Shown: one piece after another, positions 1,783 through 47,698 of the stretch | How positions within the stretch are numbered: the first letter of the stretch is position 1 | Layout of the letters: every line of letters starts with the position of its first letter | DNA from: Escherichia coli | Lineage (GTDB): Bacteria > Pseudomonadota > Gammaproteobacteria > Enterobacterales > Enterobacteriaceae | Length of the DNA: 64,000 bases | Assembly (NCBI RefSeq): GCF_044647545.1 | Contig: NZ_CP172818.1 | Reading direction: 5' to 3' (one strand) | Made by a program: the position numbers and the translations under genes | Notes under the pieces: generated by a model | Databases searched by the model: none | Told to the model about the DNA's origin: nothing | Seen by the model: only the letters and a program-made list of their open reading frames with translations

Positions 1783-3168
1783 TTACTTGCCTGTGACCGC
1801 GGCTGCCGTTCCTGGCACCATCAGCTCTGTAGCAACGATAACAATCACCAGCCCAACAAGCACCGGTACCGAGGTGCGTTTTACGACTTCAAATGGTGAG
1901 ATTTTCGCCATCCCGGCAACCGCAACGACTACGCCAGAAACGGGTGACAGGGTACGACCGAGGTTTGACGCCTGCAGCATTGGGATAGTCAAATACGCCG
2001 GGTTAATGCCGGAAGAGTGCGCCAGTTTCGGGATCATCTCAACAAACGCATAAAACGGCGCATTGCCTGAACCGGTCGTGACTGCCGCCAGCATTGTCAG
2101 GATCACTAATACCAGCATCAGGATGATACTCGCCGAACCAAACGAGGTGGCGATAGAAATCAGACTTTGAATAAAGCCGATGGTGCTAAGCCCCTGAGCG
2201 AATACCCCAGCGGCAACCAGCAGCATCACCACGTTAGCAAACGCATCGGCCATCCCGCGATAAGCCACTTCCAGACCAGAGAAAACTTTCTGGGTATTAA
2301 AGCTGCGGATGAACTCCAGAATGGAGGCAATCAGCATACAAATCACCAGAATAGTGATGATGTGTAATTGCGGACCCCATTTGCCGTCAAAAATCAGCAC
2401 TCCGATGATCGGCGTGAACGGCAAAATGGCATAAAACGCAGGAGCAGTAGTGGTGATTTCACTGACATCTAACATTTCATGAGAGATATGCTCTTTTTTA
2501 TCCAGATAACGTTGCCAGAAGAAGTGGGCGATCGCCATGCCGATAATTGCAGCAATTGAGATAGGCAGCGTCGTTTTGAAGGCGAAGTCAATCAGCGACA
2601 TTTCGGAAGCCTGCGCCGCCAGCACCACATCCCCTGAAGTCGGTGCGAGAATAATCGCCGCCGGGGAGGCACAAATAGCAGCAGCTGCACCACGGCTGAT
2701 ACCAACGTTTACCATCACCGGAAACAGGGTTGCCATCAGCAAAACACCCAGACCGGTTGCGGAAGAGACGGCCAGAGACATCAGACAGGCGACAAAATAG
2801 GCGGCAATCATCAGCAGGTAAGGGGAGTTAATATACTGCAATGGTTTTGACGCCAGCTTGACCACCATATCATTCGCGCCGATATGGGTCATGTAAGCGG
2901 CAAAGCCACACAGCATCATAATCATCATGCCGAGGTCGCCGCCGCGGCTCATTAGCAATATTTTAACGTATTCAACGATATCCGTGGCGCTGTAGCCTGT
3001 TGAAGCCTGGCTGGACGGTAACACTTTGTGCCCCATAATGGCACTGATAATCAGCAATAACAGGCCACCGACAAATAACACGCCAGTGGCGGAATACCCT
3101 TTAATGATGTAGCGAGCTACACCCACAATAACCATAACCCCAATAAGGAGTTCAATGAATGTCAGCAT
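1783..3168 (-). CDS. dcuC: Anaerobic C4-dicarboxylate transporter DcuC, 461 aa
   Basis: Long polytopic membrane ORF recognised as DcuC; position after dpiA as in E. coli. Confidence 0.9.
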   Translation of the reverse strand: MLTFIELLIGVMVIVGVARYIIKGYSATGVLFVGGLLLLIISAIMGHKVLPSSQASTGYSATDIVEYVKILLMSRGGDLGMMIMMLCGFAAYMTHIGANDMVVKLASKPLQYINSPYLLMIAAYFVACLMSLAVSSATGLGVLLMATLFPVMVNVGISRGAAAAICASPAAIILAPTSGDVVLAAQASEMSLIDFAFKTTLPISIAAIIGMAIAHFFWQRYLDKKEHISHEMLDVSEITTTAPAFYAILPFTPIIGVLIFDGKWGPQLHIITILVICMLIASILEFIRSFNTQKVFSGLEVAYRGMADAFANVVMLLVAAGVFAQGLSTIGFIQSLISIATSFGSASIILMLVLVILTMLAAVTTGSGNAPFYAFVEMIPKLAHSSGINPAYLTIPMLQASNLGRTLSPVSGVVVAVAGMAKISPFEVVKRTSVPVLVGLVIVIVATELMVPGTAAAVTGK

Positions 3169-3756
3169 AATTTTTCCTGTCTCCAGGCCCCAAAGTAAAT
3201 AATAAAAAATTCCTAAAAATTAAGGAAAAAATATGCCCAATAAATTGGCGGTGAATGCTGATTAAAATCAAGAAAAACTGCCATTAAGACATTGAAGTTG
3301 CTGTTTTTATACGTAGATAACAAAACGCATATTTAGCGGTTGGCAAATATCACATAATAATGTGTGTAAATTGATGGTGGATTGATGCAAATTTGTTAAT
3401 TGCAATGGTGTTAGCTGCGGCCATGCGCTCAAAAAATAATCTAATATGAGCATGGGTTGACGATATATATTATATACTTCGTTAAGATGATTGTTGTATC
3501 TCGTTAAAAAATAAAATAATTTTTCCTTGATTGCATTTTGTCATCAAAAAAGACTTGGTTTTTCTTTTTTGACTATTCCCATCGCAGAAAACGACGCATC
3601 ATCTTTAATCGATGCGCGGAAATATTTAACTTAAACAAGCGGAAATAAATAGAGCAGCTATTCAGATTATTTTTTATGTTGGGGCTATTAAGGTTATGTT
3701 AATTGTAGCTTTGCTATGCTAGTAGTAGATTTTTGATAAATGTTTAATGGTCACAA

Positions 3757-4317
3757 ATGAACGTGAGTAAATATGTCGCTATATTTTTCTTTGTTTTTAT
3801 TCAGTTAATCAGTGTTGGTAAAGTTTTTGCTAACGCTGATGAGTGGATGACAACGTTTAGAGAAAATATTGCACAAACCTGGCAACAGCCAGAACATTAT
3901 GATTTATATATTCCTGCCATCACCTGGCATGCGCGTTTTGCCTATGACAAAGAAAAAACCGATCGCTATAACGAGCGACCGTGGGGCGGCGGTTTTGGTC
4001 AGTCGCGTTGGGATGAAAAAGGAAACTGGCATGGCCTGTATGCCATGGCATTTAAGGACTCGTGGAACAAATGGGAACCGATTGCCGGATACGGATGGGA
4101 AAGTACCTGGCGACCGCTGGCGGATGAAAATTTTCATTTAGGCCTGGGATTTACCGCTGGCGTAACGGCGCGCGATAACTGGAATTACATCCCTCTTCCG
4201 GTTCTACTGCCATTGGCCTCTGTGGGGTATGGCCCCGCGACGTTTCAGATGACCTACATTCCGGGTACCTACAACAATGGCAATGTGTACTTTGCCTGGA
4301 TGCGCTTTCAGTTTTGA
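3757..4317 (+). CDS. pagP: Lipid A palmitoyltransferase PagP (CrcA), 186 aa outer-membrane beta-barrel
   Basis: ORF with N-terminal signal peptide, recognised as PagP; preceded by a long AT-rich intergenic region. Confidence 0.9.
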
Positions 4318-4491
4318 GACAAATGAAGTTTTAGTAAATTCTTTAAAATCAACCACTAAAATAATTAACATCAAAAATAACGCGACTTTTATCACTTTTT
4401 AGTAAAGTTGCACTGGACAAAGCGTACCACAATTGGTGTACTGGTAACCGACACAGCATTTGTGTCTATTTTTCATGTAAAGGTAATTTTG

Positions 4492-4701
4492 ATGTCTAAG
4501 ATTAAAGGTAACGTTAAGTGGTTTAATGAGTCCAAAGGATTCGGTTTCATTACTCCGGAAGACGGCAGCAAAGACGTGTTCGTACACTTCTCTGCAATCC
4601 AGACTAATGGTTTTAAAACTCTTGCTGAAGGTCAGCGCGTAGAGTTCGAAATCACTAACGGTGCCAAAGGCCCTTCTGCTGCAAACGTAATCGCTCTGTA
4701 A
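4492..4701 (+). CDS. cspE: Cold-shock-like protein CspE, 69 aa
   Basis: Internal ATG of ORF 4408..4701 gives [20 protein letters not shown]..., the CspE sequence with RNP motifs; long 5' leader. Confidence 0.95.
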
Positions 4702-4721
4702 GATACGTCAGCAAGAATTCA

Positions 4722-4750
4722 AAACCCGCTTAATCAGCGGGTTTTTTTTG
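4722..4750 (+). terminator. Rho-independent terminator after cspE
   Basis: Hairpin aaaacccgct-taatc-agcgggtttttttt directly after the cspE stop. Confidence 0.75.
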
Positions 4751-4754
4751 GTCT

Positions 4755-5138
4755 TTAGTGTGCGGTTGAGGCGGAAAACAGCCAGAAAGCCAGTGCGGTC
4801 ATGGCAAAAGACCCCAGAAGGTTGACGAAAACGTTCAGTAACGCCCAGCCAAAGCGGCCCTCTTGTAACAAAAACACCACTTCTGCCGAAAATGTTGAGA
4901 AGGTTGTTAGACCGCCACAAAATCCGGTGGTGATTAATACTTTCCACACTGGATCAATGTTCGTCATCCTGCTAAACCAGGCGAATCCCATTCCTATGAT
5001 GAATGCCCCAATCAGGTTTGCAGCCAGCGTCCCCAACGGAATCGCCTGATGCAGCGGGTTAAATCGCATACTTAACAGCCATCTCGCCACGCTTCCCGTA
5101 CCACCGCCTATAAAAACTGCTAAAAGAAGTTGTAACAC
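4755..5138 (-). CDS. crcB: Fluoride channel CrcB/FluC, 127 aa
   Basis: Small four-TM membrane ORF recognised as CrcB. Confidence 0.9.
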
Positions 5139-5227
5139 TGCAAAATCCTGCTATTTGATTTGTATGAGTGATAAGTGTAACGCCGAATAATCGCCGTTGG
5201 CGAATTTTACGACTCTGACAGGAGGAG

Positions 5228-6022
5228 GTGGCAATGCTGGTTGCCGCAGGACAGTTTGCTGTTACATCTGTGTGGGAAAAGAACGCTGAGATTTGTGCCT
5301 CGTTGATGGCGCAGGCGGCGGAAAACGACGTTTCGCTGTTTGTCCTGCCGGAAGCATTGTTGGCGCGTGATGATCATGATGCAGATCTATCGGTTAAATC
5401 AGCACAGCTGCTGGAAGGCGAATTCCTCGGACGTTTACGGCGAGAAAGTAAACGTAACATGATGACGACAATTCTGACGATTCATGTTCCTTCAACGCCG
5501 GGGCGCGCATGGAATATGCTGGTGGCGCTACAGGCAGGAAACATCGTCGCCCGTTATGCCAAACTGCATCTCTATGATGCATTTGCCATTCAGGAATCAC
5601 GCCATGTTGATGCTGGTAATGAAATAGCTCCATTACTGGAGGTGGAAGGGATGAAGGTCGGTCTGATGACCTGTTATGACTTACGCTTTCCAGAGCTGGC
5701 GCTGGCACAGGCATTACAGGGAGCTGAAATCCTGGTACTTCCTGCCGCCTGGGTTCGCGGGCCGCTCAAAGAGCATCACTGGTCAACGTTGCTTGCCGCT
5801 CGTGCGCTGGATACCACCTGTTATATGGTGGCGGCGGGGGAGTGCGGGAACAAAAATATCGGGCAAAGCCGGATTATAGATCCCTTTGGCGTCACCATTG
5901 CGGCAGCGTCAGAAATGCCTTCACTCATTATGGCGGAAGTGACGCCCGAACGTGTGCGTCAGGTGCGCGCGCAACTGCCCGTCTTAAACAACCGTCGCTT
6001 TGCGCCGCCGCAATTATTATGA
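5228..6022 (+). CDS. ybeM: C-N hydrolase (nitrilase-superfamily) protein, YbeM-like, 264 aa, intact here; true start may be the ATG at 5234
   Basis: Single uninterrupted frame containing the Glu (LFVLPE), Lys (AKLHLYD) and Cys ([10 protein letters not shown]) catalytic-triad contexts; AGGAGG immediately upstream. Confidence 0.75.
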
Positions 6023-6150
6023 TGTTTTTTTACTCGGCGCTTGATTCACCTTGTTACAGATTGCTATTGTGTGCGCGCGTCGAATGACCGTTAATATTCT
6101 CTGGTTTTTAAGGCGCGTTCTGTTGCCGGTTATATGTCAAGAAGGTATCT

Positions 6151-6354
6151 ATGGGTGAGATTAGTATTACCAAACTGCTGGTAGTTGCGGCGCTGGTCGT
6201 TCTGCTGTTTGGGACTAAGAAGTTACGTACGCTGGGCGGAGACCTTGGAGCGGCCATTAAAGGGTTCAAGAAGGCGATGAATGATGACGATGCTGCGGCG
6301 AAAAAAGGCGCAGACGTTGATCTTCAGGCTGAAAAGCTCTCTCATAAAGAGTGA
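6151..6354 (+). CDS. tatE: Twin-arginine translocase subunit TatE, 67 aa
   Basis: Small ORF with N-terminal TM helix and charged tail, recognised as TatE. Confidence 0.9.
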
Positions 6355-6393
6355 CGTGGCGAGCAGGACGCTCCCTCAATATCTTGTTCGATA

Positions 6394-6426
6394 CAAAAAA
6401 CCCGCTTCAAAAAGCGGGTTTTTTAT
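6394..6426. terminator. Bidirectional intrinsic terminator between convergent tatE and lipA
   Basis: Hairpin cccgctt-caaaa-aagcggg flanked by an A-run on one side and a T-run on the other. Confidence 0.7.
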
Positions 6427-6454
6427 CAGACAGATGTAAGTAATTATTACAGGA

Positions 6455-7420
6455 TTACTTAACTTCCATCCCTTTCGCCTGCAAATCGGCGTGGTAAGAC
6501 GAGCGGACAAACGGACCGCATGCAGCATGGGTAAAGCCCATCGCCAGCGCTTCGGCTTTCATTTCGTCGAACTCATCCGGGCTAACGTAACGTTGAACCG
6601 GCAGGTGATGGCGGCTTGGCTGCAAATATTGCCCCAGCGTTAACATCGTCACACCATGACGGCGCAGGTCGCGCATTACCTCAATAATTTCTTCATTGGT
6701 TTCACCCAGACCCACCATCAGACCAGACTTGGTCGGGATTTCCGGATGCGCTTCTTTAAAGCGTTCCAGCAGCTTCAGCGACCAGTTGTAATCTGCACCA
6801 GGCCGTACCTGACGGTAAATACGCGGTACGTTTTCCAGGTTATGGTTGAACACATCTGGTGGTGTGGCGGTCAGAATATCCAGAGCACGATCCATACGAC
6901 CGCGGAAATCAGGCACCAGAGTTTCAATTTTGATTTGCGGGCTTTTTTCCCGAATGGCAGTAATGCAATCCGCAAAGTGCTGGGCACCGCCATCGCGCAG
7001 GTCATCACGGTCAACGGAGGTGATAACCACATAACGCAGCGCCATATCGGCAATGGTTTGCGCCAGTTTCACTGGTTCATTGGCATCCGGAGCTACCGGG
7101 CGACCGTGGGCAACGTCACAGAACGGACAACGGCGGGTACAAATAGCGCCGAGGATCATAAACGTTGCTGTGCCGTGGTTGAAGCATTCCGCCAGGTTAG
7201 GGCAGGAGGCTTCCTCGCAGACAGAATGCAGGCCATTTTTGCGCATTGCGGCTTTGATGCCCTGGATACGTGTAGAGTCCGCTGGAAGCTTGATTTTCAT
7301 CCATTCCGGCTTGCGCAGCAGGGCTTCGCGCTCTGTTGCCACGTTTTTAACCGGGATAAGGGCCATCTTATCGGCATCGCGGTATTTAACACCGCGTTCC
7401 ATCACAATGGGTTTACTCAT
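6455..7420 (-). CDS. lipA: Lipoyl synthase LipA, 321 aa
   Basis: Radical-SAM CxxxCxxC (CTRRCPFC) plus second cysteine cluster; recognised as LipA. Confidence 0.95.
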
Positions 7421-7628
7421 AGCGTGCGTGTTCCAGTTGCGAATTACGAAGGAAAGCGTTTCAATTCAATAGATTGTTGTAATTATCAACTATTTTTGAA
7501 TTAACGACTGGCAGTATATCATTGAAACGGACCTGAAAGCAGCCAAAGCGGTCGCGAAAATGTAAAATTGTTGTTGGATTGTGCCATTTTTTCGTTCTTC
7601 GCTGTGATCTGGCTGTAACAATACTTTT

Positions 7629-8582
7629 TCAAAATGCATTACGGATAACATCTATTACCCCGTGCAGGATGGGATCACGCAGGCTGAATTTGTTGTAGTG
7701 GATAGAGAAATCTATTTGCTCCTCATTTAAGGACGGAAAAGGCAGTTTTTCCAGCGGCCAGCAACGGCTAAACAGGTTATAAAAACGGCTGGGAATAATC
7801 GCTAACATGTCACTGTTGGCAACCAGTGCAGCGATTGTCAAAATGTTGTAGCTGGTGAAACTGATTTGCCGGTCCGGAAACATCTCTTGAACTCTCTGCC
7901 GCAGACCGCTGAAATTTTGCCCTTCCGGTAACAGGAGTATATGCGCAGCGTTGTCGATAGTCTCTCTGTCATCTTCTAAAGAGAGTAGTGGATTTCCCTC
8001 ACGGCAAATTAACACCATATTGTCGGTGAACAGAACATGATGTTGCACCGTACGATTGGTGCAAAACATGTTATCGATGATGAGATCGGTTTGAAACTGA
8101 CTGAGTTGGTTTTCCGCGTCGCTGATGGGGGGGTTGCGCAGTAAAAGCTGCGGATAGTGAGATTTAATCGCCCGATAGATGACAGGAAGGACCAGGGCTC
8201 CGACCGAGGGGGTGGTCGCAATAGTTATCGTTCGTTGCTTATCATAGCTTCCTTCGATATCCAGCGCGCCAAGAATGGACTCAAGGCCCTGACTGATATA
8301 CTCATGTAGATGCATCGCAAATGCGGTAGGAGTGACACCCTGGCCTTTGCGAATAAACAATGGGTCAGGGAATATAACGCGCAGTTTCTGAATAGACTGA
8401 CTGATTGCCGAGGGTGTCAGATTAAGCACTTTCGCTGCATTAACGATCCCTTTATGTACATATACAGCTTCAAAAATAGTCAGAAGGTTAAGATCAATAT
8501 TTCGTAAGGTTGTAAATATTTGTGGTTTACCTTCTGACGACTTTCTGCTTAAACAGGTTTCAATTTGATTATTACTATCCAC
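7629..8582 (-). CDS. ybeF: LysR-family transcriptional regulator YbeF, 317 aa
   Basis: N-terminal HTH (LNLLTIFEAVYVHKGIVNAAKVLNLTPSAISQSIQKLR) with LysR substrate-binding-like C-terminus. Confidence 0.85.
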   Translation of the reverse strand: MDSNNQIETCLSRKSSEGKPQIFTTLRNIDLNLLTIFEAVYVHKGIVNAAKVLNLTPSAISQSIQKLRVIFPDPLFIRKGQGVTPTAFAMHLHEYISQGLESILGALDIEGSYDKQRTITIATTPSVGALVLPVIYRAIKSHYPQLLLRNPPISDAENQLSQFQTDLIIDNMFCTNRTVQHHVLFTDNMVLICREGNPLLSLEDDRETIDNAAHILLLPEGQNFSGLRQRVQEMFPDRQISFTSYNILTIAALVANSDMLAIIPSRFYNLFSRCWPLEKLPFPSLNEEQIDFSIHYNKFSLRDPILHGVIDVIRNAF

Positions 8583-34953: not shown

Positions 34954-35050
34954 ATCCAACTCCTTTATCTTCTGCGTTAAAAACGCATGGATACCCGTTG
35001 TGAGTGTTTGTGTTGTTATCTCTGCGACTTTTTGTGCGGTTGTGTTTTGG

Positions 35051-35082
<32 letters not shown>

Positions 35083-35689
35083 TTAGGTAACATTTAGTTT
35101 GGATAAATGTAAAGGTATTGCTGTTTTATTGTTTGTTTTTGCGAGATGCGCCGCACCATTCCGAAGCAAAATTCTTAAACTGCACCTTTTTGGTGCTACC
35201 GCTGATTTGTGGTGGTGCAACCCGGTTGCGTCGCGGTTGATTTCATTGCTTACACAGTAAATAAAGCAACTTACATGCCAAAAAATACTTAGGGGTGCAT
35301 TAATTACGATTGTAATTTCAGTTTGAAAAAGTCATATTTCGGACAGTGTTAACTTTTCGGTGTGGGAATTTTGCCGGGATGATAACTACACACGGGAAAA
35401 TGTTTTTTACTAGTCTTTTCAAGGAAAAATCACTTTATGTCTGCATCTTCGGTTAAGCCGTTAAATGTTCAATTACCCGCAATAACCCTGATCCTTTTTG
35501 CGCTCTGTGTTGGGATATTTTGTTACCTCGCACAATGGATGAGTTACAAAAAAGTCAATAAATCCGCACTCATCCATCTCGGCGCTAACTTTCTCTCTCT
35601 CACGTTGTCGGGTAAACCCTGGCGTTTATTTAGCAGTGTCTTTTTACAGTATTTTTTCTCTTTTATAGATATATATTTTTGCACTCTGG

Positions 35690-36790
35690 TTAGGGGGGAG
35701 GGGGGGAAGGGAAAATGGGGAAAAGGGGATCCCTATTGTTTGCCTTTTTCTCTCGGGTTTGTGTGGTGAGCACATCGTCTTGTGTTATGCGCGAAAAAAA
35801 AGAGAAAAGATAGATAGGTGGGGGGGCCGGGGGAAAAAAGGAAAAAAAGGGGGGGCGGTAAGAAAAAAACACTTCTTTAGGGGGGAGAACACAATAAAAA
35901 ACAGCGGCGAGGTTTTTTCCTTTTTGGTGGGGTGGCGCTAACGTTGTGTTGCGGCCCGGGAAAAAGAGAAAAAAAAAGCCTCTTCAATGGCGGGGCCGTG
36001 GGTGGGGGGGGGGGTTGGGTGGGGGGGGGCCCGGTTAGGTGGGACAAAACCGTTTCGTAAGGAAGGGCGAGTTTTTTGTGGCTCTTCTTTTCTCCGGCGG
36101 GGTATTTCGGGTGTGCAGCAGCAGAATGATGAAAAATTTTTTTAAAATAGGGGAAAACCGCGTGAAAAGTTTTTTTCCCAGGAGAATAAACAAAAGGAGC
36201 GAAAAAAAAAACAACAATTTAGGGGGGAGGGCAAAGCCCCCACCGAAACATTATCCGCTCCGGTAAGTCGTGAGGAGGCCAGTGGTGATTTACTCGCTGA
36301 GATTGCCGATAACCATGATATGGCGATCAATCGGGATGGTAATACGTTATATGCCGCAAATGAAAACACGAACAGTATTTTTTTTTTCGACCTCGGACAA
36401 AAGAAAATCTCCCATACTTTTATACCGCCCATAGCAAAAAAAAAAAAACACAAAAATTGTGGGGTCTGTAAAAATAAGGGGGTAAGATGGCGGTGGTTAA
36501 GCCCGAAAAAAAGGTTTTTTTATCCACTTTTATTTAAAATGAATGCGTGATCGTTAATAAAGGGGCGGAGGGGGGGGATAATTCAGTCAATAACCACCTG
36601 CACACATCCTGACAGTTTTATCCTCTCGTGGAATGAAAAAAAAGCTGGGTGAATAATGCAACCAATAAAATGTATTTATTCATCTATTGATTTATTAACT
36701 TATAAGGAAGGAGATGCCGCCCGAAAAAAAAAAAACGGGGGGGGGAGGAGGGGAAAAAGACGCCCGTGTGATATTACTCTCCGCGGTAAA
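35690..36790. other. Low-complexity purine-rich block with long poly-G and poly-A runs; no coherent coding frame; probable artefact or degraded DNA
   Basis: Runs such as gggggggaggggggg, gtggggggggggggttgggtggggggggg, aaaaaaaaaaaac and gggggggggagg; every overlapping ORF translates to low-complexity G/K/F/P-rich peptides. Confidence 0.8.
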
Positions 36791-37423
36791 AAAACATTGT
36801 TGATACCGCTTGGATTGAGAGAAAGCATATTCGAATCAATAACATCACGAATCATAAAGTAGAATTTCCCACATGTGATGGGTGTGGTGTCGTTGTTGTG
36901 ATGGGAGTATGATAACGAAAAAATAATAGTATTTTTATCGATAATATCGAGGGTATACGAGTAAAAGTTTAAGGATAGAAAAAAAAGAAGCAAAGATCAA
37001 AAGGGAGTGGTGAAACCGTTATCTCTATTAGGTTGAGAGGCAGGAGTGTAAATAGTTGTGTTTTGGTCTGGATGGCAAAGGGATTGTAACCTTTTTTAAT
37101 ATAAAGCCGGGGAAAAGATTGGCGGTTTTTCTCCCCATAACTTTTATTCTTCTCTGTTTTTCAGCGGATGGTAGAAAGATATTTGTTATGGCGAAGAACG
37201 GGTTAATCCAAATGGACAGGACGCGCTCGCTTGATCCGCAGGCAATTATTCGGCATCCCCAATATGGTGATGTGGCTTGTATCCCTGAACCGTAAGAAAA
37301 AGGGGCATGATAATCACGCCCGAAGTAATGAGAAAGTACGTTTTGTTGATACCGGATGCGGTGTTAACGGTTTATTTAGCCTGCAAAAATGATGCAATTT
37401 TGCAGGCCAGCGCATCATTTACA

Positions 37424-45295: not shown

Positions 45296-45586
45296 CAAGG
45301 AAAATTGCTCGAAAGTGACTGTTTGGTTAGGTTGCGAACAGCGTGGCGCTATATTCGTCAATTATTGTTTACTTTGTGTTTTTTCCCCACCCTACAGCCA
45401 TTCTTTTGTCATACAGGATGAAATTCGGAATTCAACAATAGTGGTGGGAAATTAATCTATGAAATACTCCCTTCAACAACACAGGATTACCTCATTTCTA
45501 CCACACATTTATTAGGAATACTATCTTTTATACATTATTACTTAAACCTCCAACCAAACCGAAAAAAATATTTTTTAAAATTAAAA

Positions 45587-45645
<59 letters not shown>

Positions 45646-45744
45646 GAAGCGTGGCCTACAGTGATGAATTGTCAAACAGTGATGTGGCAAACCCGGAACA
45701 TTTCCTTACTGCATATCAGAATCAACAAGCACCTCAATAACTGA

Positions 45745-47446: not shown

Positions 47447-47659
47447 AACCTTCTCCGTTAACCTGGTATTTGTTGCTTGTTGTGTTTGCTTGTTTAAAAA
47501 ATGCCGCAAAGCAGCACGGTGCGCAAGCGATTTGGCGGTGGAAAAATAAAAAACGTAATGGCGATTGCTGATTTGTGAAAAAGGATAGGGTGTGGTGGCG
47601 TATTTATTGATGGATCGATAATTTTTGACGGGTTTTATTGAATAGGATGATTTTAATGA

Positions 47660-47698
47660 TGGCTAAAATAAGAAACCACGCCCTGAGGCGTGGTTGCT
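47660..47698 (-). terminator. Intrinsic terminator after umpH
   Basis: aaccacgccctgaggcgtggtt hairpin followed on the minus strand by a T-rich run. Confidence 0.65.

Follow-up and report, generated by a model that had tools for sequence, protein, structure and literature searches.

The stretch of DNA analysed here (the window) comprises 64,000 nucleotides of Escherichia coli and is colinear with positions 652,801-716,018 of K-12 MG1655, at about 97-98% identity (97.8% over 35 kb). Near its beginning we identified ybeM in the gene order pagP-cspE-crcB-ybeM-tatE-lipA, which is also that of MG1655 and other records, and the gene is thus in the orthologous position. The ORF listing of the window gives a single uninterrupted frame, 5228..6022 on the plus strand, of 264 amino acids counted from a GTG. 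No stop or frameshift was found inside this ORF, and RefSeq has a CDS with 100% identical DNA that it annotates as intact (WP_001330455.1, deaminated glutathione amidase, FDAARGOS_497). The features at the start of the gene are:

5220..5228, plus strand: Shine-Dalgarno run AGGAGGAGG (window sequence), followed by TGGCA and then by ATG 5234
5228..5233, plus strand: GTG GCA, the two extra codons of the 264-codon frame; the GTG overlaps the Shine-Dalgarno run
5234..6022, plus strand: ybeM CDS, intact, 262 codons plus stop; the RefSeq CDS of FDAARGOS_497 maps here

The GTG at 5228 is formed with the final G of AGGAGGAGG, and as a start codon it would leave a spacing of just 2 nt; the distance from AGGAGG to ATG 5234 is 5 nt. 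Because GTG 5228 sits within the Shine-Dalgarno run, ATG 5234 is favoured. It is the likely start of ybeM, giving a protein of 262 amino acids, and the codons GTG GCA are probably not translated. The ybeM annotations in RefSeq (FDAARGOS_497) and in MG1655 both begin at the ATG. A first-pass annotation of this DNA had described an uninterrupted frame of 264 codons at 5228-6022. The frame itself agrees with the ORF listing and with the intact RefSeq CDS, and the start moves from GTG 5228 to ATG 5234, which makes the gene two codons shorter. For annotation purposes, ybeM should be called from ATG 5234 and named deaminated glutathione amidase.

The encoded protein is a member of the nitrilase / C-N hydrolase superfamily. 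The Pfam model PF00795 (CN_hydrolase) matches residues 5-247 across profile positions 2-255 of 256, with 142 bits against a cut-off of 23.2 (E = 2.9e-41); essentially the whole domain is matched, far beyond chance. The NCBIfam model for deaminated glutathione (dGSH) amidase, NF033621, is matched over profile positions 2-260 of 260 with 450.7 bits, where the cut-off curated by NCBI is 355. YbeM falls far under the cut-offs of the other models for nitrilase-superfamily families. The window protein is the same as the RefSeq protein WP_001330455.1 of this family (identical CDS DNA, the crcB-ybeM-tatE-lipA locus and a full-length model match), and we found no difference between the two. Among solved structures, worm NitFhit (Nit domain; 1EMS, 9.4e-30) is the closest, followed by yeast Nit2 (4H5U, 8.8e-27).

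Alignment with these proteins locates the catalytic residues at the following codons:

5351..5353, plus strand: catalytic Glu40, aligned to NitFhit Glu54, in the context LPE40A
5561..5563, plus strand: catalytic Lys110, aligned to NitFhit Lys127, in the context YAK110LH
5594..5596, plus strand: Glu121, taken as the second Glu of a Glu-Lys-Glu-Cys tetrad, opposite a conserved 'ES' in NitFhit and yeast Nit2
5672..5674, plus strand: catalytic nucleophile Cys147, aligned to NitFhit Cys169, in the context MTC147YD

The role of Glu121 is one that we assume from general knowledge of the superfamily. Cys147 also lies opposite position 169 of yeast Nit2, where 4H5U has a Cys and the mutant 4HGD a Ser. 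The earlier reading that nitrilase-superfamily Glu/Lys/Cys contexts are retained is therefore borne out by the alignment with NitFhit E54/K127/C169 and with 4HGD.

We infer the substrate and chemistry of YbeM from its family and from published work on Nit1. Cys147 would attack the amide carbonyl of deaminated glutathione (2-oxoglutaryl-Cys-Gly) with the assistance of Glu40, Lys110 and Glu121, and a thioester intermediate would be resolved to 2-oxoglutarate and Cys-Gly. The reaction would be one of metabolite repair. Mammalian Nit1 and its yeast orthologue (Nit2) are described as splitting deaminated glutathione into 2-oxoglutarate and Cys-Gly (Peracchi et al., 2017, via PMC5714238 and PMC10452834). 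Deaminated glutathione is presented there as a by-product that transaminases form from glutathione, and its hydrolysis by Nit1 as metabolite repair (PMC5714238, PMC10452834).

YbeM has the fold family, the Glu-Lys-(Glu)-Cys residues of the alignment and the proposed reaction in common with NitFhit and yeast Nit2 (1EMS, 4H5U), although the sequence kinship is moderate (E about 1e-27 to 1e-30). Yeast Nit2 is longer, with loop insertions, and YbeM has neither the Fhit fusion nor a mitochondrial targeting peptide. The E. coli protein itself has reportedly been assayed as a dGSH amidase (UniProt entry for YbeM of O157:H7).

The superfamily and the catalytic residues are also shared with E. coli YafV and mammalian Nit2 (omega-amidase), but these form a separate subfamily with another preferred substrate, 2-oxoglutaramate. 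Specificity in the nitrilase superfamily is notoriously difficult to assign from sequence, YbeM has weak matches to many further family models, and mouse Nit2 (2W1V) is a clear relative at 3.4e-22. The intact YbeM could on these grounds be an omega-amidase of the Nit2/YafV type acting on 2-oxoglutaramate, or some other C-N hydrolase, rather than a dGSH amidase. We regard this as quite improbable: the YafV omega-amidase model NF007757 reaches 60.6 bits, below its cut-off of 249, which places YbeM outside that family, whereas the dGSH amidase model reaches 450.7 against 355. The omega-amidase structure scores behind the Nit1-type structures, which are the best PDB matches, and the omega-amidase role in E. 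coli is presumably filled by the separate yafV gene.

The MG1655 record (NC_000913.3) lists ybeM (b4581) among its pseudogenes (658031..658818, 788 nt), and in another K-12 record PGAP labels the gene 'frameshifted'. The two loci are orthologous, with shared neighbours and about 98.5% nucleotide identity within the gene. The lesion was placed by a three-way alignment of the window with MG1655, and the MG1655 pseudogene was translated in three frames. One position of the window defines it:

5433, plus strand: the G missing from K-12 MG1655, at the second position of codon 67 (CGT, Arg67), alignment column 295

At codon 67 the window reads GGACGTTTAC and MG1655 reads GGAC-TTTAC; the window does not carry the K-12-type allele. 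Frame 0 of MG1655 reaches a stop after 75 codons, with the remainder of the protein encoded in another frame. Of the catalytic residues, only Glu40 is left in the truncated product, and Lys110, Glu121 and Cys147 are lost. Deletion of this single G has deprived K-12 MG1655 and its relatives of the enzyme, the protein being cut off ahead of the Lys and the Cys. The tentative statement in the first-pass annotation that ybeM is annotated as a pseudogene or split gene in K-12 MG1655 is confirmed by the b4581 annotation and by the located 1-base deletion. The pseudogene call in MG1655 is unlikely to be a sequencing error, because 859 independent assemblies have the same deletion. The K-12 frameshift itself is not discussed in the papers found by a whole-word literature search for ybeM.

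Two length differences separate the window from MG1655 at ybeM: the G at 5433 and one non-coding AGG unit (5220-5222). The Shine-Dalgarno sequence contains (AGG)3 in the window versus (AGG)2 in MG1655, a 3-nt indel (columns 82-84) that leaves the frame unaffected. (AGG)3 is also present in the closest relatives of the window (1051-bp matches), and a match length of 1048 bp in most other E. coli points to (AGG)2. When the MG1655 frame is repaired, 4 of 262 residues differ from the window protein (V33A, V37A, H124R and S230A), none of them catalytic. The 12 substitutions in all comprise 4 non-synonymous and 8 synonymous changes (pN/pS 0.16).

Over 5100-6150 the window shares 98.3% identity with K-12 records. 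No difference separates its first 25 kb from MS6198, ECONIH1 and further isolates (100% identity), a set that includes a strain named 'ST648', and the ST648-type clinical isolates that match over these 25 kb carry ybeM annotated as intact. It had been proposed that the sequence derives from a strain with a functional allele or differs from MG1655 at this locus; the 100% match to ST648-type genomes over 25 kb, with 97.8% to MG1655, agrees with this. The opposite outcome that had been named, a sequence identical to MG1655 in which ybeM is itself intact, was found on neither count. The contrast between an intact ybeM in the window and a broken one in K-12 is correct, but it is already known and annotated. 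Its importance is limited: it confirms a non-K-12 (ST648-type) E. coli with the usual allele of a metabolite-repair amidase, of which K-12 is a natural null.

Two garbled patches elsewhere in the window (about 35.0-37.4 kb and 45.47-45.65 kb) raise the question of whether the intact frame could be an artefact, that is, a K-12-like sequence whose frame was restored by a base insertion or miscall. The probability of this is negligible, and we rejected it: across 25 kb that include ybeM, several independent complete genomes match the window at 100%, 12 substitutions separate it from MG1655 in ybeM alone, and at least 3,533 genomes have the G.

The frequency of the two alleles was determined across 5,426 complete E. 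coli genomes, and all but two have the ybeM locus (5,424). The exact MG1655 80-mer across the deletion occurs in 859 of the 5,424 genomes (about 16%), a count taken at a length for which the band of at least 99% identity can be reached by exact matches only. The exact 81-mer with the G occurs in 3,533 of the 5,424. The remaining genomes (about 1,030) differ by nearby SNPs, and those sampled had the 81-nt span with the G present. Genomes bearing the G include O157:H7, O111, ST131, ST648 and ETEC H10407. The intact gene is the common (majority) state in E. coli, and therefore the copy in the window is ordinary. We infer that the intact allele is also the ancestral one. One 92.8% match, annotated 'nitrilase-related', was set aside; it comes from a low-quality assembly in which all the neighbouring genes are frameshifted too.

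Carriers of the deletion are not confined to laboratory strains: 8 of the 10 sampled are non-laboratory strains (human, faecal, farm and river-water). In the river-water isolate KMi006, ybeM is annotated as 'frameshifted', and over 3 kb the sequence matches that of MG1655 at 99.9%. Given this near-identity and the existence of natural carriers, shared descent is favoured, and the sequence comparison points to carriers that are related by descent rather than to a laboratory mutation. The position of the deleted G outside any homopolymer run speaks against codon 67 being a hot spot of recurrent slippage.

On balance, we lean towards the view that the K-12 frameshift is a naturally circulating null allele, present in about 16% of complete genomes and belonging to a K-12-related phylogroup A lineage (river-water, farm and human). 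If so, E. coli would offer a natural contrast between knockout and wild type for testing the importance of dGSH repair in bacteria, and a large part of the metabolomics based on K-12 would have used a background null for dGSH amidase. The use of K-12 as a reference for glutathione-damage metabolism is also affected, as ybeM is broken there and in about one-sixth of sequenced E. coli.

A simple promoter and terminator scan of 4700-6500 detected neither a sigma-70 consensus nor any other convincing promoter in the 95-bp crcB-ybeM spacer, with sites no more numerous than in shuffled sequence. An Rfam scan of 3000-8000 (which would include, e.g., a fluoride riboswitch upstream of crcB) detected no family at ybeM or in the crcB-ybeM spacer. 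The sole Rfam match above threshold in 3000-8000 is a cspA-type thermoregulator (RF01766) at 4301-4749 on the plus strand, with 136 bits against a gathering threshold of 78. It spans both cspE and its 5' leader, in keeping with the cold-shock family to which the gene belongs.

The failure to find an upstream consensus promoter would fit a gene that is intact yet silent or decaying in the lineage of the window, and functionally equal to the K-12 pseudogene. The gene is also dispensable, because about 16% of E. coli genomes lack a working copy. Nevertheless, we consider silence or decay very improbable, since ybeM has a strong Shine-Dalgarno sequence at ideal spacing, keeps all of its catalytic residues, has the low pN/pS given above (0.16, from 12 substitutions), and is kept intact by the great majority of genomes in different pathotypes (O157:H7, O111, ST131, ST648 and ETEC H10407). 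In addition, transcript changes are reported for uropathogenic CFT073, with a 0.30-fold change in ybeM expression and a ChIP peak for NsrR at the gene (PMC5320621); ybeM is transcriptionally responsive in that strain and therefore expressed there. ybeM has been cloned from UTI89 (PMC6206680), and the work on uropathogenic strains treats it as an ordinary expressed gene (PMC5320621, PMC6206680).

We therefore hold with high confidence that 5234-6022 is the intact, common allele of ybeM in its crcB-tatE position on an ST648-type chromosome, and that it encodes a 262-amino-acid cytoplasmic amidase of the Nit1 branch.

Some other features of the window were observed in comparison with MS6198 and MG1655. 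Between 24.6 and 64 kb, the window differs from MS6198 by a single indel, apart from the two garbled patches and their edges. The first patch (about 35,020-37,420) lies in the interval between gltI and lnt, where MS6198 has an intact gene for a 625-amino-acid rhomboid-family intramembrane protease and MG1655 has IS5D. In the window this protease gene shows 20-40% mismatches per 100 bp relative to MS6198, biased to homopolymer runs of A, G and T, including a 28-nt poly(A) at 35,051-35,078. No long ORF was found in the patch, and no complete E. coli genome matches its version of 35,020-37,420 above 83.4%.

The second patch (45,468-45,650) is flanked by the metT tRNA cluster and asnB. In place of about 410 bp of MS6198, which comprise most of a gene for a 145-amino-acid hypothetical protein, the window has about 180 bp of AT-rich, low-complexity sequence with a 49-nt poly(A) run at 45588-45636. 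Both patches fall within segments that are absent from MG1655, and both are probably sequencing, assembly or data artefacts and not biology. Between asnB and umpH/nagD, at 47644-47673, the window is without about 170 bp of intergenic sequence that is present in MG1655 (699376-699546); this segment is probably a variable REP-type element.
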